Source: Eledone cirrhosa
Taxonomy: Eukaryota
Assembly: GCA_964016885.1 (NCBI GenBank)
Contig: OZ024746.1
Coordinates: forward strand, 59,830,001-59,894,000
Direction of reading: 5' to 3'
Length of the DNA stretch: 64,000 nucleotides
This document shows positions 5,186 to 55,258 of this stretch, one piece after another. The position numbers and the translations under genes were made by a program. Position 1 is the first letter of the stretch. Every line of letters starts with the position of its first letter. The notes under the pieces are model-generated. The model made no database searches, had not been told where the DNA came from, and was given only the letters and a program-made list of their open reading frames with translations.

Positions 5186-5228
5186 GTCAAAGTTCTTTCG
5201 TCACACATTCTGTGACCTCTTCAGTGAC
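5186..5228 (-). ncRNA. minimal type-I hammerhead ribozyme (family A)
   Basis: Reverse complement of the 5283-5325 motif. Confidence 0.75.
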
Positions 5229-5282
5229 TGGGGATTCTTTTCTTTGTTTTTGTGCCTCTCCTTTGTTCTGTCCTACCCATCA

Positions 5283-5325
5283 GTCACTGAAGAGGTCACA
5301 GAATGTGTGACGAAAGAACTTTGAC
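5283..5325 (+). ncRNA. minimal type-I hammerhead ribozyme (family A)
   Basis: gtca-CTGAAGA-g-gtcaca[gaatg]tgtgac-GAAA-gaac-TT-tgac. Confidence 0.75.
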
Positions 5326-5471
5326 AATATATAAACAATCATCTGGTTGTGGAACCAACCAACCAACCAGAAATTTATAAATTCCTAAATTTATAAATGT
5401 ATTATAATAAATTGAAGAGAAAGCAACTGGTGCGTGTGTTTCTTATTGGCAACATGACCCTCCCAAAGTAT

Positions 5472-5943
<472 letters not shown>

Positions 5944-6144
5944 TTAGTTATACTATTTATGGTTATGTAAACACAAAACCTTAAGCAGTTGTAAGTATTT
6001 TACACACACCCTAAATAGTGGTAGGCAGTAATGTATTACTACCTTATTACCAGTAAGTTAAGTAGCTCAATGTAAAAACATCAGATGATTTACAGAGCAG
6101 TTATATGAAATATATGAATCAAAGAACTGTTCAAAACATTATTG

Positions 6145-6191
6145 TGCTTACAGCTGTTTCCTCCAAACCGAGGTTTGGATTCTTCGGAGCA
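6145..6191 (-). ncRNA. type-I hammerhead ribozyme, CCGAAGA core variant (family C, copy 1)
   Basis: Reverse complement of 15508-15554. Confidence 0.75.
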
Positions 6192-7636
6192 ATTTATTAA
6201 TGCATGGACAGTTATATGACCTCCTTTTCAGCCGAGAGACATACCAATACATATTCAAACATTGATACATATTCAAACATTGTGGGTCAACATTCATTAC
6301 AGAATTTAGAGTGGCAGTACACACTTCGAGATTACATTTATATTAATAGGTACAATCAAAAAAATCAAAGATATAGGTTAAAATACAACATGAAGATAAG
6401 TGGTTATATAGTGCAAATGTTATATGTGTGGCACGCATGTGCGTCTTGTTTATATAGTGTGGCAGAGAGATATGTGTGGTAGAGGCACTTAGGTAGGTAA
6501 ATAAGAGTGTTAGGTTGGTAGATCTGGTGGCAAAGTCTTTATATGATTGATATAGTCTGTGTGTGGAGAAATATTATAAGCATTAAAGATAGTGCAAGCA
6601 TTAAAAGTGTTATAAGTATTGGAGATGCACAGCGCAGGGATGTCAAGTAATTCATGTACTTCGGTATTTTCATGGTCAAGGGAGTGTATATTTCGATTAT
6701 ATGCCTTTCACATAATCCACGACAATCCAGTTAGAGATCGTAGTCTGGTGCTCTTTAGTTCGATACAGGTGGTTGTTACGTTTCGAGAGACGCCATTGAA
6801 TACCGGAAGTGTGTGTGTGGCTAAGGGGAGTTAATGCATGCGGGGAGGTAACTCTGGGGTTTCTATATCTAGCCATTAAAATGTGTCTCAATATAGACCC
6901 TAAATTCTATGGTGAGGTGCACCTTCCAAGAGAGACTTTTAAAGCATAAAGTGTACTAACTATAGAGTAGTTTAACTAAATTATGCTGAAGGTGATCATA
7001 TTATTATTAGGGTGGATTAACCCATCTTAAGGTGCTACAAATGGAAATTATAGATGATGAGCGAGGGTTCTAAATTAATGATCTCTATGGTTGTAGTCTG
7101 CTCATATGACCAGGCGCGGTGATTGCAGGATTGCTTCAGGACCCAATGATCTCTGGTAAGATCCGGGTCATCGCTTGCTACATTGGATGTCGAAAGATAA
7201 TCATCCCCAAGCAGGCCAAAGGTCAAGTCGCAGTCCTCGCGACCCCTCTCTGACCGTCAGATCATCCATATACGTACAACCCGCACGGCAGTTGCATTGC
7301 ATTCACTCACTGCGCTCAGCGGCCTGGTCCTACTGGTCAACAGCGCTACTCGATTAAATCATTTTACATCTGTCTAAGGAAGGTGTTTCCTCTGCCCAAC
7401 ACCATCCAACCGATCAATTGATGCTCAAATTACCCTTAGAGCGGCGTAGTGCCGTCCAGGTGGGTGGATGTTGTCACACCTGCCGTAGAGGTATAAATGG
7501 GTATTTTCCCTGCGAAGGGTTCCAGAGGGATGTCGTTGTTTGTGTTATAATGTATCAGCTAGTGTTGGGTATGTAGTATAGGGTGTGTCTCTGGTGTTTG
7601 ATGCTAGATGTGGTGTTAGGTTCCAGTCCGACATTG

Positions 7637-10096
7637 CTATATATGGGGCTTAAAGTTTTGGAAGGAATGTCTGAGGCGGTGCTGGCAAGTTGCAAACACC
7701 TCAGATTTTTTGTTAAGTAGGTTACGGTTGGAGAAGATAATATTGTGTGTCTCTAGTATACAGAGGTTACAGAATTTATTAGGTGGTTTGTACGAGGTCG
7801 CGCTGCCTATCACTTCCCATTTGAGTGTGTATGGTTTATTTTTAGATTTTAGATAGTGAATGTAGCTAGAAAGTGAGGTGGAGTTGGCTAGGCTGTGCTT
7901 TTTGAACGAGTGGATGTGCGAGTTATATCTAATTTTGAAGCAGTTAGAAGTGGAGCCTACATAGGTTTCTGAAGAGTTATTAGTCGTGACTGTGCATGAG
8001 TATATGACATCCTTGGTTAGGCATTTTTTATCTAAAGGGCAGGTTCTATTAGCTCTACAGTTACAATTATTCTGTGCGTTAGTCCGCTGGTTATAATGCA
8101 ATGCGGAAGTCTGTGTGGTGGGTATAGGATTTTGGGTGTTCAGGTTGACAACCCTGGTGTTATTACTTATACTAGTGTTATTTCCATTGTTACTGCCGTT
8201 GCTATTGTTGCTTGCTACAGTGGTATTTAGAGGGTTTGCATCCCGTTGCGATTTTGTTTGTTGGAAGTAAGAACTAATTTTACTATTATTGCTGCTAGCT
8301 ATGTGGTATGCTAAGTTAGGCGTCGTGGAGTATGAGATTTTAATGGTGTTTTTGTTTAAGAGGTTGTGGTACTTGTGTCCTAGAGGGAAGTTTTTATCTA
8401 GTAGTGAGAAGAAAGCCCTAGGTATGTTGGTGGAGACATTTAGGTTGAAAGGAGGGTTGAAAAATGTATTATTTCTTCTTCTATTTTTGCTTTTAGTGTT
8501 TGGTGTGTTGCTTCCTCCTAAGGCCTCACAGTAGTTTCCATGGTAATGGTTACTTCCGGTGGCACCCTCCGCTTTGGTGTACTTGTGGTTGCTATTCCTA
8601 TTATTAGATTTCCTCATGGACATGTTGTGCGAGATGATGTTGTAGCTATGTGTTTTCTTAGGTAGGAACTCAATTTCTATATTATGGCCGGAGCTAGCTA
8701 ATGCTTGATTGTAATATTGTGAGTTTTTGCTAAATATGTTTGCGTCATAGGACAGACTAGAGATTCTATTGGACACCCCCTTAGAGATAGAGTTTAATAT
8801 TGATCTAGGGTGATTAGACTTGGTATCTACGTAAATAAGTTTCTCATTAGGCTTATGGAAGGGTGTATATATTTTTGAGTCTAGGTATAGTGTGGCGTCT
8901 AGGAAGTTAACATTTTTAGTGTTTTTGTCCATGGTGATACTAAGGTTAAAGTTTTTGAATGTCTTATGCAGTTGTTTTCTAGTTCTTTCTATATTAAATT
9001 TCTTATATTCTATGAGTAGAAGTGCATCATCGCGGTACAAACCACCGTTGAGGTAAGGGAGGTCTTTATGGATTTCATTGAGGAGGTATAGGCCGACCAA
9101 ATCAGTGACCTGCGCCGAGTCACTAGATCCCATGGTTATGTCGAAGTTGTTGTGCGTATCCTTGCGTGTCCATAGTTGGTCCTCGAAGGTGATTATGGTT
9201 TTACGGGCCGCAAGGATGACATCAACCTGGGCTCTAGTCAGGTCGCTATTGGTCATGGCCATGATAAGTGCCTTATTTAATAGGATAGGGGAAATAGAGG
9301 TGTAGTATGAATTGATATCAAATTGAATAAATTTTTTGTTCTTATTATTCTTGATATCCTTAAACCATTCAATTACTTCACCCGTATTTCCCCATTGTTT
9401 AAGGTGTATCTTGTGTTTAATTTGTGGGATGATTTTATCCAAAATCTTCTTGCTGATAATACCAATGTCGGACTTGGAAGGGCAGATAAGTCTTATCGTG
9501 GGGTTGCTGATGAAGTTCTCCTTATGGTCCTTCAGAGAGAATCTAGGGGGGTTCGGAGTGAAAGGTTGTGTATGCCTCTGTAGTCCTAGTTTAGACACTA
9601 TATTATAACCCTCTACATTAATATCTTCTAAGTTTTTCAAGGTGGTTTTTTTGTAGCTTTTATGTAGTTCATTATATATAAACTTTCTATAAGTAATATA
9701 ATCTAGGCTGTATATGTTATTAGTTTTATCTGCGTGTACAATAATTTTATTACTAGTTTTGAATCCACTAATAGAAGTGTTAAGTTTGTTTAAGAAGGTG
9801 TTGCTTCTAATATGGTGCTTATTGTATTTAATGTTCTTAACTAGTTTAACTAGGTCATTTTCAAAGGAGTTAAGTAGAGTGTTATGAGGGGGGCTTTTAA
9901 AGGTTTTAAAGCCGAAGGAGTCAAAATTGTTAGTATTATTCAAGTTGTTAGATTTGTTTCTATCATAATGGAATGTCCTCCATCTCACTCTATTGATAAA
10001 TGAATTTACACTGTTGATCAGCAATTTCTCATATGTATTCTTGGATGGTATTGGTATGTTCTTGGTTGACATGGGGAGTTGGTCTTTGATTAGCAT
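7637..10096 (-). CDS. PLE polyprotein: reverse transcriptase + C-terminal GIY-YIG endonuclease (819 aa, intact)
   Basis: N-terminal STKNIPIPS..RVRW and ADKTNN; RT motifs FIQFDINSYYTSI, ITMGSSDS, GLYRDD, VNFLD; linker FFNPPF and CNCRANRTCPLDKKC; GIY-YIG VIY...YVG..KIRYNSH; C-terminal CNLCILE and CQH. Confidence 0.95.
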   Translation of the reverse strand: MLIKDQLPMSTKNIPIPSKNTYEKLLINSVNSFINRVRWRTFHYDRNKSNNLNNTNNFDSFGFKTFKSPPHNTLLNSFENDLVKLVKNIKYNKHHIRSNTFLNKLNTSISGFKTSNKIIVHADKTNNIYSLDYITYRKFIYNELHKSYKKTTLKNLEDINVEGYNIVSKLGLQRHTQPFTPNPPRFSLKDHKENFISNPTIRLICPSKSDIGIISKKILDKIIPQIKHKIHLKQWGNTGEVIEWFKDIKNNKNKKFIQFDINSYYTSISPILLNKALIMAMTNSDLTRAQVDVILAARKTIITFEDQLWTRKDTHNNFDITMGSSDSAQVTDLVGLYLLNEIHKDLPYLNGGLYRDDALLLIEYKKFNIERTRKQLHKTFKNFNLSITMDKNTKNVNFLDATLYLDSKIYTPFHKPNEKLIYVDTKSNHPRSILNSISKGVSNRISSLSYDANIFSKNSQYYNQALASSGHNIEIEFLPKKTHSYNIISHNMSMRKSNNRNSNHKYTKAEGATGSNHYHGNYCEALGGSNTPNTKSKNRRRNNTFFNPPFNLNVSTNIPRAFFSLLDKNFPLGHKYHNLLNKNTIKISYSTTPNLAYHIASSNNSKISSYFQQTKSQRDANPLNTTVASNNSNGSNNGNNTSISNNTRVVNLNTQNPIPTTQTSALHYNQRTNAQNNCNCRANRTCPLDKKCLTKDVIYSCTVTTNNSSETYVGSTSNCFKIRYNSHIHSFKKHSLANSTSLSSYIHYLKSKNKPYTLKWEVIGSATSYKPPNKFCNLCILETHNIIFSNRNLLNKKSEVFATCQHRLRHSFQNFKPHI

Positions 10097-10345
10097 ATTG
10101 GCAATATTATATGTCAGCTCAACGATATGGAGCAGTTAATAGTATTAGTTATACTATTTATGGTTATGTAAACACAAAACCTTAAGCAGTTGTAAGTATT
10201 TTACACACACCCTAAATAGTGGTAGGCAGTAATGTATTACTACCTTATTACCAGTAAGTTAAGTAGCTCAATGTAAAAACATCAGATGATTTACAGAGCA
10301 GTTATATGAAATATATGAATCAAAGAACTGTTCAAAACATTATTG

Positions 10346-10392
10346 TGCTTACAGCTGTTTCCTCCAAACCGAGGTTTGGATTCTTCGGAGCA
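10346..10392 (-). ncRNA. type-I hammerhead ribozyme, CCGAAGA core variant (family C, copy 2, upstream of the left ORF)
   Basis: Identical to 6145-6191 at offset +4201. Confidence 0.75.
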
Positions 10393-11602
10393 ATTTATTA
10401 ATGCATGGACAGTTATATGACCTCCTTTTCAGCCGAGAGACATACCAATACATATTCAAACATTGATACATATTCAAACATTGTGGGTCAACATTCATTA
10501 CAGAATTTAGAGTGGCAGTACACACTTCGAGATTACATTTATATTAATAGGTACAATCAAAAAAATCAAAGATATAGGTTAAAGTACAACATGAAGATAA
10601 GTGGTTATATAGTGCAAATGTTATATGTGTGGCACGCATGTGCGTCTTGTTTATATAGTGTGGCAGAGAGATATGTGTGGTAGAGGCACTTAGGTAGGTA
10701 AATAAGAGTGTTAGGTTGGTAGATCTGGTGGCAAAGTCTTTATATGATTGATATAGTCTGTGTGTGGAGAAATATTATAAGCATTAAAGATAGTGCAAGC
10801 ATTAAAAGTGTTATAAGTATTGGAGATGCACAGCGCAGGGATGTCAAGTAATTCATGTACTTCGGTATTTTCATGGTCAAGGGAGTGTATATTTCGATTA
10901 TATGCCTTTCACATAATCCACGACAATCCAGTTAGAGATCGTAGTCTGGTGCTCTTTAGTTCGATACAGGTGGTTGTTACGTTTCGAGAGACGCCATTGA
11001 ATACCGGAAGTGTGTGTGTGGCTAAGGGGAGTTAATGCATGCGGGGAGGTAACTCTGGGGTTTCTATATCTAGCCATTAAAATGTGTCTCAATATAGACC
11101 CTAAATTCTATGGTGAGGTGCACCTTCCAAGAGAGACTTTTAAAGCATAAAGTGTACTAACTATAGAGTAGTTTAACTAAATTATGCTGAAGGTGATCAT
11201 ATTATTATTAGGGTGGATTAACCCATCTTAAGGTGCTACAAATGGAAATTATAGATGATGAGCGAGGGTTCTAAATTAATGATCTCTATGGTTGTAGTCT
11301 GCTCATATGACCAGGCGCGGTGATTGCAGGATTGCTTCAGGACCCAATGATCTCTGGTAAGATCCGGGTCATCGCTTGCTACATTGGATGTCGAAAGATA
11401 ATCATCCCCAAGCAGGCCAAAGGTCAAGTCGCAGTCCTCGCGACCCCTCTCTGACCGTCAGATCATCCATATACGTACACTATTTAGGGTGTGTGTAAAA
11501 TACTTACAACTGCTTAAGGTTTTGTGTTTACATAACCATAAATAGTATAACTAATACTATTAACTGCTCCATATCGTTGAGCTGACATATAATATTGCCA
11601 AT

Positions 11603-14062
11603 ATGCTAATCAAAGACCAACTCCCCATGTCAACCAAGAACATACCAATACCATCCAAGAATACATATGAGAAATTGCTGATCAACAGTGTAAATTCATT
11701 TATCAATAGAGTGAGATGGAGGACATTCCATTATGATAGAAACAAATCTAACAACTTGAATAATACTAACAATTTTGACTCCTTCGGCTTTAAAACCTTT
11801 AAAAGCCCCCCTCATAACACTCTACTTAACTCCTTTGAAAATGACCTAGTTAAACTAGTTAAGAACATTAAATACAATAAGCACCATATTAGAAGCAACA
11901 CCTTCTTAAACAAACTTAACACTTCTATTAGTGGATTCAAAACTAGTAATAAAATTATTGTACACGCAGATAAAACTAATAACATATACAGCCTAGATTA
12001 TATTACTTATAGAAAGTTTATATATAATGAACTACATAAAAGCTACAAAAAAACCACCTTGAAAAACTTAGAAGATATTAATGTAGAGGGTTATAATATA
12101 GTGTCTAAACTAGGACTACAGAGGCATACACAACCTTTCACTCCGAACCCCCCTAGATTCTCTCTGAAGGACCATAAGGAGAACTTCATCAGCAACCCCA
12201 CGATAAGACTTATCTGCCCTTCCAAGTCCGACATTGGTATTATCAGCAAGAAGATTTTGGATAAAATCATCCCACAAATTAAACACAAGATACACCTTAA
12301 ACAATGGGGAAATACGGGTGAAGTAATTGAATGGTTTAAGGATATCAAGAATAATAAGAACAAAAAATTTATTCAATTTGATATCAATTCATACTACACC
12401 TCTATTTCCCCTATCCTATTAAATAAGGCACTTATCATGGCCATGACCAATAGCGACCTGACTAGAGCCCAGGTTGATGTCATCCTTGCGGCCCGTAAAA
12501 CCATAATCACCTTCGAGGACCAACTATGGACACGCAAGGATACGCACAACAACTTCGACATAACCATGGGATCTAGTGACTCGGCGCAGGTCACTGATTT
12601 GGTCGGCCTATACCTCCTCAATGAAATCCATAAAGACCTCCCTTACCTCAACGGTGGTTTGTACCGCGATGATGCACTTCTACTCATAGAATATAAGAAA
12701 TTTAATATAGAAAGAACTAGAAAACAACTGCATAAGACATTCAAAAACTTTAACCTTAGTATCACCATGGACAAAAACACTAAAAATGTTAACTTCCTAG
12801 ACGCCACACTATACCTAGACTCAAAAATATATACACCCTTCCATAAGCCTAATGAGAAACTTATTTACGTAGATACCAAGTCTAATCACCCTAGATCAAT
12901 ATTAAACTCTATCTCTAAGGGGGTGTCCAATAGAATCTCTAGTCTGTCCTATGACGCAAACATATTTAGCAAAAACTCACAATATTACAATCAAGCATTA
13001 GCTAGCTCCGGCCATAATATAGAAATTGAGTTCCTACCTAAGAAAACACATAGCTACAACATCATCTCGCACAACATGTCCATGAGGAAATCTAATAATA
13101 GGAATAGCAACCACAAGTACACCAAAGCGGAGGGTGCCACCGGAAGTAACCATTACCATGGAAACTACTGTGAGGCCTTAGGAGGAAGCAACACACCAAA
13201 CACTAAAAGCAAAAATAGAAGAAGAAATAATACATTTTTCAACCCTCCTTTCAACCTAAATGTCTCCACCAACATACCTAGGGCTTTCTTCTCACTACTA
13301 GATAAAAACTTCCCTCTAGGACACAAGTACCACAACCTCTTAAACAAAAACACCATTAAAATCTCATACTCCACGACGCCTAACTTAGCATACCACATAG
13401 CTAGCAGCAATAATAGTAAAATTAGTTCTTACTTCCAACAAACAAAATCGCAACGGGATGCAAACCCTCTAAATACCACTGTAGCAAGCAACAATAGCAA
13501 CGGCAGTAACAATGGAAATAACACTAGTATAAGTAATAACACCAGGGTTGTCAACCTGAACACCCAAAATCCTATACCCACCACACAGACTTCCGCATTG
13601 CATTATAACCAGCGGACTAACGCACAGAATAATTGTAACTGTAGAGCTAATAGAACCTGCCCTTTAGATAAAAAATGCCTAACCAAGGATGTCATATACT
13701 CATGCACAGTCACGACTAATAACTCTTCAGAAACCTATGTAGGCTCCACTTCTAACTGCTTCAAAATTAGATATAACTCGCACATCCACTCGTTCAAAAA
13801 GCACAGCCTAGCCAACTCCACCTCACTTTCTAGCTACATTCACTATCTAAAATCTAAAAATAAACCATACACACTCAAATGGGAAGTGATAGGCAGCGCG
13901 ACCTCGTACAAACCACCTAATAAATTCTGTAACCTCTGTATACTAGAGACACACAATATTATCTTCTCCAACCGTAACCTACTTAACAAAAAATCTGAGG
14001 TGTTTGCAACTTGCCAGCACCGCCTCAGACATTCCTTCCAAAACTTTAAGCCCCATATATAG
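11603..14062 (+). CDS. PLE polyprotein RT + GIY-YIG (819 aa), identical to 7637..10096
   Basis: Identical translation in the ORF track. Confidence 0.95.
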   Translation: MLIKDQLPMSTKNIPIPSKNTYEKLLINSVNSFINRVRWRTFHYDRNKSNNLNNTNNFDSFGFKTFKSPPHNTLLNSFENDLVKLVKNIKYNKHHIRSNTFLNKLNTSISGFKTSNKIIVHADKTNNIYSLDYITYRKFIYNELHKSYKKTTLKNLEDINVEGYNIVSKLGLQRHTQPFTPNPPRFSLKDHKENFISNPTIRLICPSKSDIGIISKKILDKIIPQIKHKIHLKQWGNTGEVIEWFKDIKNNKNKKFIQFDINSYYTSISPILLNKALIMAMTNSDLTRAQVDVILAARKTIITFEDQLWTRKDTHNNFDITMGSSDSAQVTDLVGLYLLNEIHKDLPYLNGGLYRDDALLLIEYKKFNIERTRKQLHKTFKNFNLSITMDKNTKNVNFLDATLYLDSKIYTPFHKPNEKLIYVDTKSNHPRSILNSISKGVSNRISSLSYDANIFSKNSQYYNQALASSGHNIEIEFLPKKTHSYNIISHNMSMRKSNNRNSNHKYTKAEGATGSNHYHGNYCEALGGSNTPNTKSKNRRRNNTFFNPPFNLNVSTNIPRAFFSLLDKNFPLGHKYHNLLNKNTIKISYSTTPNLAYHIASSNNSKISSYFQQTKSQRDANPLNTTVASNNSNGSNNGNNTSISNNTRVVNLNTQNPIPTTQTSALHYNQRTNAQNNCNCRANRTCPLDKKCLTKDVIYSCTVTTNNSSETYVGSTSNCFKIRYNSHIHSFKKHSLANSTSLSSYIHYLKSKNKPYTLKWEVIGSATSYKPPNKFCNLCILETHNIIFSNRNLLNKKSEVFATCQHRLRHSFQNFKPHI

Positions 14063-14165
14063 CAATGTCGGACTGGAACCTAACACCACATCTAGCATCA
14101 AACACCAGAGACACACCCTATACTACATACCCAACACTAGCTGATACATTATAACACAAACAACG

Positions 14166-14592
14166 ACATCCCTCTGGAACCCTTCGCAGGGAAAATACCC
14201 ATTTATACCTCTACGGCAGGTGTGACAACATCCACCCACCTGGACGGCACTACGCCGCTCTAAGGGTAATTTGAGCATCAATTGATCGGTTGGATGGTGT
14301 TGGGCAGAGGAAACACCTTCCTTAGACAGATGTAAAATGATTTAATCGAGTAGCGCTGTTGACCAGTAGGACCAGGCCGCTGAGCGCAGTGAGTGAATGC
14401 AATGCAACTGCCGTGCGGGTTGTACGTATATGGATGATCTGACGGTCAGAGAGGGGTCGCGAGGACTGCGACTTGACCTTTGGCCTGCTTGGGGATGATT
14501 ATCTTTCGACATCCAATGTAGCAAGCGATGACCCGGATCTTACCAGAGATCATTGGGTCCTGAAGCAATCCTGCAATCACCGCGCCTGGTCA
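14166..14592. ncRNA. putative structured RNA island in the PLE 3' UTR (mirror copy 7107-7533)
   Basis: GC-rich block in an AT-rich UTR with more than 10 nested stems found by eye; no convincing ORF. Confidence 0.4.
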
Positions 14593-15507
14593 TATGAGCA
14601 GACTACAACCATAGAGATCATTAATTTAGAACCCTCGCTCATCATCTATAATTTCCATTTGTAGCACCTTAAGATGGGTTAATCCACCCTAATAATAATA
14701 TGATCACCTTCAGCATAATTTAGTTAAACTACTCTATAGTTAGTACACTTTATGCTTTAAAAGTCTCTCTTGGAAGGTGCACCTCACCATAGAATTTAGG
14801 GTCTATATTGAGACACATTTTAATGGCTAGATATAGAAACCCCAGAGTTACCTCCCCGCATGCATTAACTCCCCTTAGCCACACACACACTTCCGGTATT
14901 CAATGGCGTCTCTCGAAACGTAACAACCACCTGTATCGAACTAAAGAGCACCAGACTACGATCTCTAACTGGATTGTCGTGGATTATGTGAAAGGCATAT
15001 AATCGAAATATACACTCCCTTGACCATGAAAATACCGAAGTACATGAATTACTTGACATCCCTGCGCTGTGCATCTCCAATACTTATAACACTTTTAATG
15101 CTTGCACTATCTTTAATGCTTATAATATTTCTCCACACACAGACTATATCAATCATATAAAGACTTTGCCACCAGATCTACCAACCTAACACTCTTATTT
15201 ACCTACCTAAGTGCCTCTACCACACATATCTCTCTGCCACACTATATAAACAAGACGCACATGCGTGCCACACATATAACATTTGCACTATATAACCACT
15301 TATCTTCATGTTGTACTTTAACCTATATCTTTGATTTTTTTGATTGTACCTATTAATATAAATGTAATCTCGAAGTGTGTACTGCCACTCTAAATTCTGT
15401 AATGAATGTTGACCCACAATGTTTGAATATGTATCAATGTTTGAATATGTATTGGTATGTCTCTCGGCTGAAAAGGAGGTCATATAACTGTCCATGCATT
15501 AATAAAT

Positions 15508-15554
15508 TGCTCCGAAGAATCCAAACCTCGGTTTGGAGGAAACAGCTGTAAGCA
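15508..15554 (+). ncRNA. type-I hammerhead ribozyme, CCGAAGA core variant (family C, copy 3)
   Basis: tgct-CCGAAGA-a-tccaaac[ctcg]gtttgga-g-GAAA-cagctg-TA-agca. Palindromic stem III, as in dimer-acting PLE hammerheads; predicted cut after 15550. Confidence 0.75.
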
Positions 15555-15585
15555 CAATAATGTTTTGAACAGTTCTTTGATTCAT

Positions 15586-15636
<51 letters not shown>

Positions 15637-21396: not shown

Positions 21397-21836
21397 TTAA
21401 AAAAACATGGTGTTTTTATTAAATATGGATTTGAAAACAAAATTCAGGAAATATGAAAGTGAGGCTGAAAAAAACGGGCGAAAAGGAAATAGGGGAAAAA
21501 AATATAAAAAATATATATATAAAAAAATAAATATCCAGAACATAAACATACACACACTCAACTACGCGCATATACGTAATAGTACGTAGACGTATACTTT
21601 CTCACATAAGCGTATTTGCGTCTACATAGAAATACGAACAGGAACATAAATACATACACATACATATACACAGATATATATATATGCACTCTTATTACAT
21701 AACTAATAAGCTCTGTAACCTACATAGAGCACTCTTTTTTCCTGTACCTTTCCGACGGAAAAACTTCATTTACACACACATATATACATATATTATTTAC
21801 TTGCAAACCGCCAGAGATTCGATTTTACTGATTTCC

Positions 21837-21867
<31 letters not shown>

Positions 21868-22101
21868 CCCACTCTACTAAGCTAAGTATTGAGTACTTTG
21901 GTGCGTTATTGTCCACCTGGTTCCTTACCACATTTCCTCCGTTATATATATATATATATATATATATTTTGTTTAGTAAGATTCTTTATCTGAAAACGTG
22001 TGTTGAAACCGATATAGTTATACTTTGGGAGGGTCATGTTGCCAATAAGATGGCGTAGGACAGAACAAAGGAGAGGCACAAAACAAAGAAAAGAATCCCC
22101 A

Positions 22102-22426: not shown

Positions 22427-22509
22427 GTAGGAGGTGCGTTTTATTGTAGTACAATAAAGCAATGCAGATATCGGATAAGAAGCACTCTACAGTTTGTGGG
22501 ACTGGAGTA

Positions 22510-24372
22510 TGCATAATATAAGATCAAACATCAAATTTTCGTATTCTACATCCTCCAATATTTCCAACATCATCTCTAAACACAACAACAAAATATTAAA
22601 TACTAAATCTCTTCCTTCCAATATCGAATTTCATAATAACAGTAATAGTACTCCCGACGTCATTGTAAACCCTAGGCTAACTTCTGTAAACCCAAATACA
22701 ACGTCAAACACAACTTCGCTAAATGTTCATAATCCAACTCTAAATCAAGAAACTATTATTCCTATTATTCCTATCGCAAACAACTTCTCCAATCCAATTC
22801 CTTCTATAGATAACACTAGATCACTCATTAATAATCTCTCTAATTGCAACTGCCGCATCAAAAATAAATGTCCTCTCAACAACCATTGCCTCGATAAAAA
22901 CTTAATTTATGAATGTAAATTTATAACTAGCACCAATTCCTTCACCTATTTTGGCTCCACTTCCACCTCTTTTAAAGCTCGTCTCTATAATCATCATTCA
23001 TCTTTCAAATACAAACTTAAAAGAACTAACACTGCTCTCTCAGAACTCATATGGTCCTTAAAAGACAAAAACATTAAATATAACATCCTTTGGAAAAAGA
23101 TTTCTTCTGCATCCTCATACTTGAACAGCTCTCTATCTAAAATCTGTAATCTCTGCCTAAATGAAAAATTTACCATTATCTCTAACCTAGATTCTATAAT
23201 AAACAGACGCTCAGATTTGTTTTCTATCTGCCTGCATAAATTCCATAGAACTTTTCACAAAGTATACAGTTAATATTCAATTCTTTATCAATTTAGAATC
23301 TTTTCTCAAAGGCACATATACATACACCTCTTTAAAATATACCCATCTACCTTACCTTACTTTAAAGGGCATTATACACTCTATAATACTCGTTTACTCA
23401 TTACCCTCATTCTATCTTCTCGTAAAATAATAACATTTGTTTTTGACATTTTGAATATTCATCCGCAATCATTATTATTTTTTCTCTCTATCATAAATCT
23501 TTTTAATCTCAATTTCATCCTTAATTTATTATTATTTTTTTCTCCCCATCAACGAACTCATTATTAATACATATCAATTCAATATACAAACTTTAACTTC
23601 ACATTATTTTTCTCAAATCCTTCTACACACAAACCATAACAACTTTTCTCTTCGCTAATTTTGAAATTGCCACAATACATACATTTCTTCTTTTGACGTT
23701 AGAATATTCACCCACAATTATTATTTTTTTCTCTCTATCTTCATACATAATTTCCCTTCGTTAATTTTCAAATTCCTTTAATTTATACATTATCTTCCAA
23801 CGGTTCCCAACCTCTCTATATTAAAACAATATATCTTTTTCTCAGTTATAAAAACTATCTCTTTCTCTCTATCACCCATCTCTCCCTCTCCACCTTCACT
23901 CTCATCTCCTCCCCCCTTTTTTTCATCCTTTCCACCCCACCCCCCACCCCCTCCCTAAATAAAATATTTTTTCCTCGCACATATCCTCCCTTCGTTAATT
24001 TTCAAAATTTTTAATTTATACAGTATCTTCCAACGGTTTTCAACCCCTCTATGTAAAAAATATATCTCCTCTCAGTTATAAAAACTATCTCTTTCTCTCT
24101 ATCACCCATCTCTCCCTCTCATCTCCTTCCCTTTTCATCCTTTCCCCCCCCCCTCTCTAAATAAAATATTTTTCCCAATATCACACATCAATCTAAAACC
24201 ACTTTTCATATGTTGATTTAAAACTGCACTATCAACAAGTGTTTTTTAGCCTTCATATCATGTTCTCCTGTTTTATCTGATGAAAACACAAATATTATTG
24301 CTTGATGATGTTTGTTTTTGAAATGCGCATAATAAAATATATGGAACTCCTTTAACCATCTTTTGATCTTAT
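22510..24372 (+). mobile_element. 5'-truncated PLE (second family): endonuclease domain, ~1.1-kb 3' UTR and hammerhead
   Basis: ORF 22494..23273 has IKFSYS, CNCRIKNKCPLNNHC, LIY..YFG, KARLYNH, CNLCLNE. A ~235-bp tandem duplication lies in the UTR (about 23753-23970 and 23987-24175). Confidence 0.85.
24271..24337 (+). ncRNA. type-I hammerhead at the 3' end of the second PLE (family E-like)
   Basis: ttttat-CTGATGA-aaacacaaata[..]tgtttgttttt-GAAA-tgcgca-TA-ataaaa; perfect stem I and palindromic stem III. Confidence 0.8.
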
Positions 24373-24912: not shown

Positions 24913-27077
24913 TTTCTTTATTAGCCACAGGGGCACAAAAGAAGGGGACAAATACAAAGGGGGAAGTTTACATACAATAAAAACGTGTAAAATGTTATCA
25001 CACATGGAATTTAAAAAGTTAGTCGATTTTCCCCAATAGAGGGAGACAGTTTATATGGGTAACACATACCCCCGAAAAAAAATGTGCAACCCTCATCTCC
25101 AGGAGTACGAAGAGCTTGTACTCCTTTCCTCTCCTCCTCCTTTTCCTCAACCTACAGGCTGATATAGAGAGAAGGCCCATTCACTCGGGCCATTCTCGCC
25201 ACTTTCACCCACCTTTCATAAAACTTGCTGGGGTACAGCACCTCACTCTCCATCCTGATTCTTCTTCCAAAGTGGTATTTGAAAAAAAGAATCAGTTGTT
25301 GGCCGGAGAGAAAGGTGTCTGACCTCAGCCCTTTCAACCTTGTCCACCATACAACCTCTTTCGCCATAGCTATCACACAAAGGAAAACCGCCTCTCCTTC
25401 GTTTTTGAAGGAGGGTGGCGGTTTGATCATGACAATGGACTCGGTGGTCAACTGGATTGGTCCCACCCGCGACAATAGTCGTTCTACATAGCCCCACAGG
25501 TCAGTGACGCCCGGGCAGTGTATGAATGCGTGCGCGACGGTTTCTTCGTCTCGCACGCACCTCGAACAGATCTTTTTTGCAGGGTCCCTGCCCGGGCGCC
25601 CATGTCTGTAGAGCTTGTCTCGAACTGGTAGAGCTCCTCGGTAGCACTGCCAGGCCAGGGACTTTTGGAAGTTGTCCATCGGTCCCGGGCGGAAGGTCCT
25701 ACCGAACAGACTGGCCAGTTCATCTTCCTCTACGCCTAGAGTTTCACCGAGCGCGTCGTCGCACTTGCTGCGGACCAACCCTCTATAGAATGACGAAGTG
25801 GAGTCTCCACTGATCGCCGGGTCCGCCTGCCAGAGGGCTGTGAGCGCCTGAGCACATTCGATGTGCCAGTCGCCCATTTTCCTCGGTCTTTGCTTGACTC
25901 AGGACTGCAGCTCGGTCAGCGAGACAAGTCGTGGGAAGGCTCGCCTCACGAACGGGGCCCACACCGGTTGTCCGGTGAGGAATACGTAGAGATGCCGCAG
26001 CCTGAGCGCGTGTTTGCGCATCGTCAACCACGGCATCCCCAGCCCTCCGTTAGAAGGGTGTTGGCAGCAGATGGATCTTCTCACCAAAGGAGCCCGCCTC
26101 TTCCAAAGGAATCGGAAGAGCGCGCGCTCCATTTTGGCGAGCGTTTTGGCTGGACAAGGCACGACGGTCAAGCGGTAGTAGATGGTGGACGCTATAAAAG
26201 TGTTCGCCACCTCCGCTCGACCTTTCAAGGATAGTTTGCACTCGGCCCACTTCTGGGTGAGTGCAAACACCTTGGCCGTCACTTCGTTCCAGTTCTTCTC
26301 CACCTGGAGGTCCGGACCAAACCAGACCCCGAGCAGCTTTACCGGTCCTTCCGTCCAGCGTCCGACGACGCCATCGGAAGGCATCGGTCTGCCTCTCCAC
26401 GATCCGAGTTGCAAACCGATGGACTTGTCCCGGTTCAGCTTCGCTCCTGTGAGACTTTCGTATTCCTTTAGTAAGGTGCCGACTTCCTCGATTTGCGAGG
26501 CGCTCGACACCATTACTGTCACGTCGTCGGCGTAGGCCGACGCCGCTTTCCGCAGTCCCGGTTCCAGAGGGATGCCCTGCAATAGCTCCAGCTTCCGCAG
26601 TAGTGGCTCGAGAGTCAGTACGTACAGAAGGGAGGAGAGAGGGCATCCCTGTCGAATGGATCGCGTAATATGGAACGGCTCCGAGAGGTAGCCGTTCACC
26701 TTGACCCTTGAGCAGATGTTGCTGTTGTGCATTGCAGCAATCCAGCCCCTGAACACGGGTCCGAAGCCTGCCGCCTCGAGCACCGCATCCAGGTAACGAT
26801 GGTCAACTCTATCGAAAGCCTTAGACTGATCCAAGTTGATCAGGGCCCCACCGAAGCCGGGTTTACACCCTACCCTCTCTATGATGTATCGCATGAGGTG
26901 GAGGTTGTCGTGTATGGACCTGGTCGGGATTGCGCATGTCTGCGCTTCTCCCACCAGGTTCTCGACGACAAGCGCCAGCCTCTTTGCCAACACCTTGGCC
27001 AAAATCTGTAACTCTGTGTTTAGCAGAGTTATGGGCCGGAAGTTGCCTATGTCATCCCCCTTATTCTCGTCAGGCAT
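24913..27077 (-). mobile_element. 5'-truncated L1/Tx1-clade LINE (RT, C-terminal Zn-binding region, 3' UTR)
   Basis: NFRPITLLN, LDQSKAFDRV, RQGCPLS, YADD, then CSRC..ETVAHAFIHC. ORFs 25899..27077 and 25152..25877 are in frame across one stop that is W in the 54310 copy. AATAAA lies just before (TA)n. Confidence 0.9.
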
Positions 27078-32533: not shown

Positions 32534-32681
32534 CTCTATATCTATACAGGGTGTCCCAAAAAATGAATACACACTTCAAAAACATTCTAACACATTTCGT
32601 CACACATTTTCTGACCTCCTCAGTGACTACACCATCGTGATGGTGTAGGACACAACAAAGGGAACACAAAATAAAAACATA

Positions 32682-54258: not shown

Positions 54259-54312
54259 TATATATATATATAATATTAGGTATAAGTTGTAGCTACCTTA
54301 TAGCAGGTACTA

Positions 54313-55258
54313 ATCGAGGCTGGCCAGTTCGTCTTCCTCCATGTCTAGGGCTTCTCCGAGGGCGTCGTCGCATCTGCTGCGTACCAGCCCTCTATAGAAG
54401 AGGGTGGAGTCTCCACTGATAACCGGGTCCGCATGCCAGAGGGCCGTGAGCGCCTGGGCACACTCAGTGTTCCAGGCGCCCAGTTTTCTCGGTCTTTGCT
54501 TGACCCAGGATTGCAGCTCGGTGAGTGAGACGAGTCTGGGAAAGGTTCGTCTCACAAACGGGGCCCACACCGGTTGACCGGTGAGGAATACGTGGAGGTG
54601 TCGTAGCCTTAATGCGTGTTTACGCATCATTAGCCACGGCATCCCCAGCCCTCCTTTCGAAGGGTGTTGACAGCAGATGGATCTCCTCACCAAAGGAGCC
54701 CGCTTCTTCCAAAGGAATTGGAAGAGTGCGCGTTCCATCTTGGCGAGGGTTTCCCTTGGGCAAGGCGCGACGGTCAGGCGGTAGTAGATGACGGACGCTA
54801 TATAGGTGTTCGCCATCTCCGCCCGACCTTTCAGGGATAGTTTGCAACTGGTCCACTTCTGGGTCAGTGCAAACACCCTGTTCGTAACCTCACCCCAGTT
54901 CTTCTCCACCTGAAGGTCTGGTCCGAACCAGACCCCGAGCAACTTCACCGGGTCCTCCGTCCAGCGTCCGACGACGCCATCGGAGGGCATCGGTTTGCCC
55001 CTCCACGTGCCGAGTTGCAAACCGATCCACTTGTCCCGGTTCAGCTTAGCCCCTGTAAACCTTTCGTACTCCTCCAGTAAGGTGCTGATCGCCCCGATTT
55101 CGGAGGCCGTCGACACCATTACTGTCACGTCATCGGCGTAGGCCGACACCGCTTTCCGCAATCCCGGTTCCAAAGGGATGCCCTGCAACAACTCCAACTT
55201 CCGCAGTAGTGGTTCGAGAGTCAATACATACAGAAGGGAGGAGAGAGGGAACCCTTGA
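54313..55258 (-). mobile_element. internal fragment of the L1/Tx1-type LINE (RT YADD region)
   Basis: 304-aa ORF collinear with the 25899..27077 product. A 3'-tail piece of the family lies in the opposite orientation at ~54030-54087. Confidence 0.88.

Follow-up and report, generated by a model that had tools for sequence, protein, structure and literature searches.

The window analysed here, a stretch of 64,000 nucleotides from Eledone cirrhosa, carries a Penelope-like retrotransposon (PLE) of the EN+ kind, recognised by a single ORF for reverse transcriptase (RT) and GIY-YIG endonuclease, a pseudo-LTR, an inverted copy, a tail and a hammerhead motif. The genomic copies of its family indicate that one unit of 4201 nt was very probably reread during each insertion. 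Both arms in the window would stem from a single insertion into (TA)n, and a hammerhead-cut, ligated, circular 4201-nt RNA read past one round is our preferred and moderately probable account of their template. The type of element and the idea of a circle are already known. Published answers to the question of how PLEs acquire partial tandems and regenerate the upstream repeat conflict, however, between a circular template and a linear multi-copy mRNA; the present family, in which one register has about 1,100 ends and intact copies are numerous, discriminates between these models, and it points to one unit being reread. Exact predictions follow for the size of the circle, its junction, the two start sites and a cis domain that spans roughly -410 to +100. 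The haplotype test employed here is usable on any PLE family, and turns an old question into exact tests.

Organisation of the element and its protein

Positions within the unit (u) are counted from the A of the ATG (u0; window position 10096, minus strand), u and u-4201 denoting the identical phase. Self-comparison of the window revealed that 5938-7278 is duplicated at 10139-11479 with a period of 4201 over 1341 bp and one mismatch, which confirms the sequence-only reading of the left arm (5938-11479, minus strand) as 5542 bp, or 1.32 units, of an exact 4201-bp period. The copy at 10139-11479 (minus strand) is the upstream partial repeat, or pseudo-LTR. The right arm (11478-15597, plus strand; 4120 bp, 0.98 unit) is an inverted copy of the left arm with one mismatch and, as the same reading held, begins 125 nt upstream of the ATG. 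The two arms meet head-to-head with a 2-nt overlap (CA, 11478-11479). By end mapping, the left arm (minus strand) finishes at the long one of two fixed 3' registers, where 43 nt remain to the ATG position of the following unit, and the right arm (plus strand) at the short one, where 207 nt remain to the ATG position. The 164-nt 'tail' (5938-6101, minus strand) separates these two ends and is present in one arm only. Insertion was into (TA)n, which flanks the element at 5477-5937 on the left and 15598-15632 on the right, and also borders the mapped loci elsewhere in the genome.

Penelope-like elements are the sister group of telomerase RT. The ORF of the left arm (7637-10096, minus strand) encodes 819 aa comprising a Penelope-type RT (YRDD) together with a GIY-YIG-like endonuclease at the C terminus, and an identical ORF is listed for the right arm (11603-14062, plus strand). 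A Pfam scan of the 819-aa ORF itself returned no significant match. It has 303 homologues at E<=0.001, approximately 30-45% identical, the one named animal homologue being from an octopod. When the protein was aligned with 18 of its homologues, the RT and GIY-YIG motifs lined up (YRDD; YVG..F..RY), and among these 19 members Pfam recognised RVT_1 in one and GIY-YIG in one. The sequence contains RWR, DKT, CNCRANRTC, CNLC and CQH, and the cysteine pair is absent inside the GIY-YIG motif. The excerpts of Craig et al. (2021; PMC8557442) on the Hydra clade list RW(R/K), DKT, a CxCX5C linker, and CxxC and CxH around a conserved E and N, with no CCHH; by this published list of motifs, the element likely belongs to the Hydra clade. 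(PMC8557442, PMC4209133, PMC3846280, PMC6765202, PMC7229834 and bioRxiv 10.64898/2026.07.22.740005 are cited throughout for what excerpts of them state.) The family in E. cirrhosa is young. Since 78 of 107 ORF copies are open, the 4.2-kb family is not a non-coding retrozyme, a description that fits only the mini-units of loci L191 and L281 discussed below.

Several further repeats share the window. A different repeat with a hammerhead-like motif (CTGAAGA...GAAA GAA CTT) occurs at 5200-5476, near 22090 and near 32678; the motif forms an inverted pair at 5200-5330, and the element studied here occupies the adjoining (TA)n. A fragment at 22509-23273 (minus strand) derives from a distant second element of Penelope-like kind (58% DNA identity), and a similar fragment in locus L254 showed 33% protein identity. 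Two related non-LTR RT fragments, 86% alike, are located at 25152-27077 and 54310-55255 (minus strand; RVT_1, E value 1e-27).

Fixed 3' ends and matched repeats

The 3.0 Gb of genome searched contain 1231 exact matches to a 25-mer taken from the long end and 134 to a 26-mer that reads into the next unit. Mapping covered 174 loci: set A, 49 loci picked because they were nearly full-length and highly identical; set B, 73 loci from the first 100 listed of the 1231 25-mer matches, and hence anchored on the long end; and set C, 52 loci taken from the list of unit junctions. Excluded from these were L218 (without match), L191 (handled separately), L149 (the same as L199) and the second halves L193 and L198. 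The uncensored 3' ends (n=315) fall at u4158 in 161 cases and at u3994 in 134, 164 nt apart, and the other 20 belong to rearranged loci. Of the 122 loci with at least two recognised ends, 120 have one arm of each kind; the remaining mapped loci have two long ends (1), three ends (1), one recognised end (50) or none (2). A remnant of the partner end is retained in 16 of 39 single-arm loci, and fold-backs, which count twice, amount to 9 of 124 two-armed loci. In a sister family approximately 80% identical around the ends, the two registers are unchanged, the query being long-end anchored, and the same is true of AGTT-family loci. The two registers of the window are thus the two fixed 3' ends of the family, i.e., the known Penelope tail. 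A 'tail on one end' has been described for Penelope elements (PMC8557442; PMC3846280), and in vitro it corresponds to two internal RT start sites in the anole element, Poseidon of Anolis carolinensis (PAc; Frangieh et al. 2024, PMC11167929).

A random circular permutation, by which the sequence-only reading had explained the different registers of the arms, is therefore rejected for the 3' ends. That reading had also expected copies with scattered registers and more than one unit in length, which fails for the 3' ends and is borne out for the 5' ends and for length: 100 arms exceed one unit, the longest having 2.03 (L192) and 2.39 units. The latter belongs to L083/L084 (G000:C23, 27.74-27.76 Mb), whose arms measure 2.39 and 1.36 units. 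A fixed 3' end explained by a linear read-through transcript had been named as evidence against the circle; the ends are indeed fixed, but linear read-through does not fit the lineage mutations that the repeats of an insertion share.

These mutations were examined by comparing the repeats inside one insertion. Within arms, alleles known from at least three loci are present in both repeats in 555 cases and in one repeat in 31; the split is 495/25 and 60/6 on the two sides of the cut, these being non-independent allele-by-pair counts which rest on 148 distinct sites 5' of the cut and 18 sites 3' of it. In a control that compared a repeat with full units of other loci, 8.3% were in both. Opposite arms are similarly matched (753 vs 26). 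Alleles private to a locus occur within arms in both repeats in 93 cases and in one repeat in 132. Among 204 within-arm differences, five were seen at a second locus and none at a third. In a nearest-neighbour test (n=144), the segment from the same locus was closest in 83 cases, tied in 46 and farther than that of another locus in 15. The shared alleles indicate that the repeats of an insertion are not independent lineages, and thus each insertion would freshly duplicate one unit. The repeats are unlikely to have been converted after insertion, given that mutations private to a locus remain unmatched between them. The rolling-circle copying of a monomer proposed in the sequence-only reading is well supported as far as the repeated reading of a one-unit template goes.

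No clear two-lineage chimera was found in 73 informative loci, discordant sites numbering at most three; L142, with 7 matched and 3 discordant sites, was considered and is unconvincing. Among 98 full-length loci there was no convincing parent-daughter pair for mapping the seam, and the genome data accordingly do not place it at the hammerhead. At u3981 (window 6115), beside the short start site, a recurrent T-to-A change perfects a short tandem repeat; it is confined to one repeat in L012, L082 and L097, and is fixed in the lineage of the window.

Template RNA: hammerhead, cis elements and rival accounts

A motif scan and folding identified a type I hammerhead motif (CCGAAGA...GAAA...GUA) with a palindromic loop III (AGCU) at 10342-10394 (minus strand; predicted cut 10350/10349). 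The motif scan found the second copy of the left arm at 6141-6193 (minus strand; predicted cut 6149/6148), separated from the first by 4201 nt, and that of the right arm at 15506-15558 (plus strand; predicted cut 15550/15551). The hammerheads previously placed at 10346 and 6145 are thus present as motifs, with predicted cuts 4 nt away, and the 211 and 47 nt by which the left and right arms overrun the cut are consistent with the corrected site. At gathering thresholds, Rfam gave no match in the window, and the assignment is based on the scan and the fold. Core position 4 has C in place of U, and cleavage is a prediction from motif and fold. Helix III consists of one pair, and loop III is self-pairing as RNA in the AGCT, AATT and AGTT subfamilies, which account for 39, 38 and 21 of the first 100 matches listed of 4946. 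For the motif of the window, two copies co-fold as a double hammerhead at -35.1 kcal/mol, vs -11.7 for one; for two sister-family hammerheads the lowest-energy co-fold is another duplex, with no double hammerhead. Minimal hammerheads cleave poorly in vitro, and a ribozyme active only as a dimer would suit the cutting of multimers and the sparing of a monomer circle (PMC4209133). An AATAAA lies 50 nt upstream of the cut and could terminate a linear transcript. After the cut, two upstream ATGs precede the ORF, which would complicate translation of a circle. Other hammerheads were also encountered, namely a motif with a CCACTG loop near 21398 (minus strand) of the window and several further families in L066, L093, L112, L228 and other flanks, including a U3-A8 core variant (TTGAAAA, TTGATAA).

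The motif TAACTGCT lies directly 3' of the long end register (10131-10138, minus strand), where it exists only at the unit-unit junction and is missing from terminal repeats, and also at the short end register (10297-10304, minus strand). A 12-bp helix is predicted between u3846-3857 (10440-10451, minus strand), at whose 3' edge 5' ends are concentrated in a hot spot, and positions +37 to +48 inside the ORF (10048-10059, minus strand). The AATT family again has predicted helices between pseudo-LTR and ORF start. For the long helix, duplexes formed across families match the cognate ones in energy, so that pairing is conserved with no cognate advantage as a sign of co-evolution. Both the long-site motif and the predicted helices need sequence missing from terminal repeats. 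Starts are therefore likely where the pseudo-LTR enters the ORF, the only place that offers them, and copying of the ORF would then need a circle or a jump. TATAAAT and CCACTCT at 10509-10543 (minus strand) have a spacing which we take to be that of a candidate TATA box and initiator, with a predicted start at 10513; the AATT sister family does not retain the TATA. The minimal RNA of the anole element extends past its start site too (PMC11167929).

The claim that the arms read through the cleavage site and end elsewhere applies to the mapped loci in general. None of the 242 segments of sets A and B that span the cut has an indel within 5 nt of it, and the passes that end 5 nt or less from it number only 4 of 367. 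By the predicted transcription start, 3 of 76 second-pass arms end at u3779-3800; given these two counts, a run-off end is not visible. Second-pass arms stop at u3851-3890 in 15 of 93 cases (scan; none of 500 simulations as strong), and passes stop at u3945-3957 in 10 of 373, a mild excess. First-pass 5' ends showed no cluster in excess of simulation (scan p ~0.1). The hot spot at u3851-3890 may reflect RNA structure, its edge coinciding with the predicted 12-bp helix, or possibly a true 5' end of the RNA. A 'goes back' joint seen in three sequencing runs, of unrecorded kind, is the genomic tandem junction, and these runs have no bearing on expression or circles.

In the course of events that we favour, a donor of more than one unit would be transcribed from its upstream repeat. 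Paired hammerheads, held by the self-complementary loop III, are predicted to cut at GUA and release one unit, which a host ligase, e.g., RtcB, would close with the assistance of the predicted helices between the 3' part and the ORF start; the lone hammerhead within the circle would not recut. Retrozyme monomers are converted into circles by RtcB in vitro (PMC7229834). The endonuclease would then nick both (TA)n strands, and each 3' end would prime RT at a separate internal site, located 207 or 43 nt upstream of the ATG. Synthesis halts, as observed in the pattern of ends, at scattered points that at times lie beyond one or two units, and microhomology would join the two cDNA ends. A round of reading beyond one unit would restore the upstream repeat required by the next donor. 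The covalent circle joined at the GUA site, tentatively proposed in PMC4209133, is plausible, and the sequence evidence inclines us towards it. A wider scheme is put forward with some hesitation: a 4.2-kb coding circle through which an autonomous animal retrotransposon would replicate, on which a dimeric enzyme would prime both target strands at two fixed sites, append short repeats at one of these as telomerase does, and continue beyond one unit so as to rebuild the promoter repeat, and which would spawn retrozymes on shrinkage to the folded pseudo-LTR/ORF-start domain.

DNA copies of a covalent circle and of a scarlessly crossed nick look alike, and one unit might also be reread from RNA that is linear, either a base-paired nicked monomer that is crossed or a capped transcript, redundant at its termini, on which synthesis would pass from the 5' end to the 3' repeat by strand transfer of a retrovirus-like kind. 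This would account equally for the matched repeats; the predicted helices would keep the RNA ends together, the TATA/initiator-like and AATAAA motifs would yield a redundancy of approximately 140 nt, and both the hot spot at u3851-3890 and the mild excess at u3945-3957 are to its credit. It demands, however, near-perfect scarless crossing, in view of the few stops at the cut and at u3779-3800 and the absence of indels, and no clear two-lineage chimera supports it. Retroviral strand transfer uses RNase H, whereas Pfam scans of the protein returned no RNase H domain. The anole data, on the other hand, require no cleavage, since hammerhead mutants were without effect on insertion in vitro and zero RNA-seq reads started or ended at the cut (PMC11167929). 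Overall, we regard linear rereading as unlikely, though a serious contender.

An uncleaved multimeric transcript read once, the alternative left standing in the sequence-only reading, is the scenario outlined for the anole element with in vitro support (PMC11167929); it would give fixed 3' ends, and the loci of 2.03 and 2.39 units are possible donors. Such a transcript predicts that a mutation carried by one repeat of a donor passes to one repeat in all daughters, and cannot give lineage mutations common to both repeats, contrary to the ratio of 555 to 31 and the 8.3% control, and no within-arm difference is common to three loci. Only three same-strand tandem junction pairs, one of them a mini-unit, are present among 100 listed junctions and the C23 locus, and daughters never longer than their donors would lead to erosion of the lineages. 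We consider this account largely refuted and very improbable. Other routes to homogeneity, improbable to a lesser degree, are post-insertion gene conversion, a template of circular DNA, or oligomers from RNA-to-RNA rolling circles copied once, as a review suggests for RNA oligomers from circles (PMC6765202). The private alleles found in both repeats would suit them, but the 132 found in one repeat imply that conversion is slower than mutation; moreover, shared alleles are 95% matched, inverted arms included, and the AGUU loop pairs as RNA only. Polishing of the assembly would be expected to favour majority alleles and not a locus's own minor ones.

Relation to known elements, mini-units and start-site repeats

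With the Hydra clade (PMC8557442), the element shares a single RT and C-terminal GIY-YIG-type ORF with RW(R/K), DKT, CxCX5C, CxxC and CxH, a hammerhead, the (TA)n target, a partial tandem with an inverted truncated copy, and a tail on one end. It differs in its unit of 4.2 kb with a 3' UTR of 1.7 kb, members of the clade being described as generally <3 kb, and in its tail of 164 nt as against 30-40, both 3' ends here preceding the ATG. PAc likewise has a tail bounded by two internal RT start sites, an AT-rich target of which both strands are cut and extended, and a minimal RNA that reaches into the ORF. Its start sites are inside the ORF, have no homology to the target and are alike on both strands, while those described here lie upstream of the ORF, terminate in TA-like bases and serve one arm each (PMC11167929). 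The only biochemical study, that of PAc, favours an uncleaved multi-copy RNA, with circles unmentioned, and its model of a linear multi-copy mRNA is contradicted by the data for the present family.

The circle model of PLEs is in print (PMC4209133; PMC6765202). As stated in PMC4209133, hammerhead cleavage, ligation and RT of more than a unit would give head-to-tail partial tandems such as those observed here; that proposal was tentative, and the genomic copies now lend population-level support to the rereading, not to the ligation. A literature search that covered few subscription journals found neither a published within-insertion haplotype test nor detection of a circle for an autonomous PLE. 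Metazoan non-LTR retrozymes, for which mobilisation by PLEs has been proposed, also have type I hammerheads, tandem units and dimer-dependent variants (PMC7229834; bioRxiv 10.64898/2026.07.22.740005). They are non-coding, 170-400 nt in length and known as circles from northern blots (PMC7229834), whereas the present unit is coding and measures 4.2 kb. Genomic copies of more than a unit made off a monomer template, as judged from haplotypes and arm lengths, are a retrozyme-like trait of the family.

Two loci come closer to retrozymes. In L191 (4094-6258; G000:C2, ~284.70 Mb), a non-coding mini-unit of 507 nt with a hammerhead extends from u3792 to +98; the two arms carry 2.55 and 1.73 copies of it, and its four junctions are identical. 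No second locus has this junction, all four genome matches being within L191, and splicing was rejected as its source, GT-AG being absent; the mini-unit may have arisen by an RNA event or from a lost parent. An independent mini-unit of 525 nt was found in L281 (1253-2420), of the AGTT family, with an identical junction (+129 to ~u3779) in both arms. Both mini-units retain the predicted folded domain and, by analogy, resemble newborn retrozymes. An origin of retrozymes from PLEs has been argued (bioRxiv 10.64898/2026.07.22.740005).

The two start sites differ in their tendency to stutter. One to three extra units of the TTTCATA type are found in 33 of 133 short-end arms vs 1 of 160 long-end arms. 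Extra CT units occupy the short site in 7 of 10 partner arms of the AATT family (L252-L278). By analogy with telomerase, we infer that these short-site repeats may reflect initiation by realignment and repetition.
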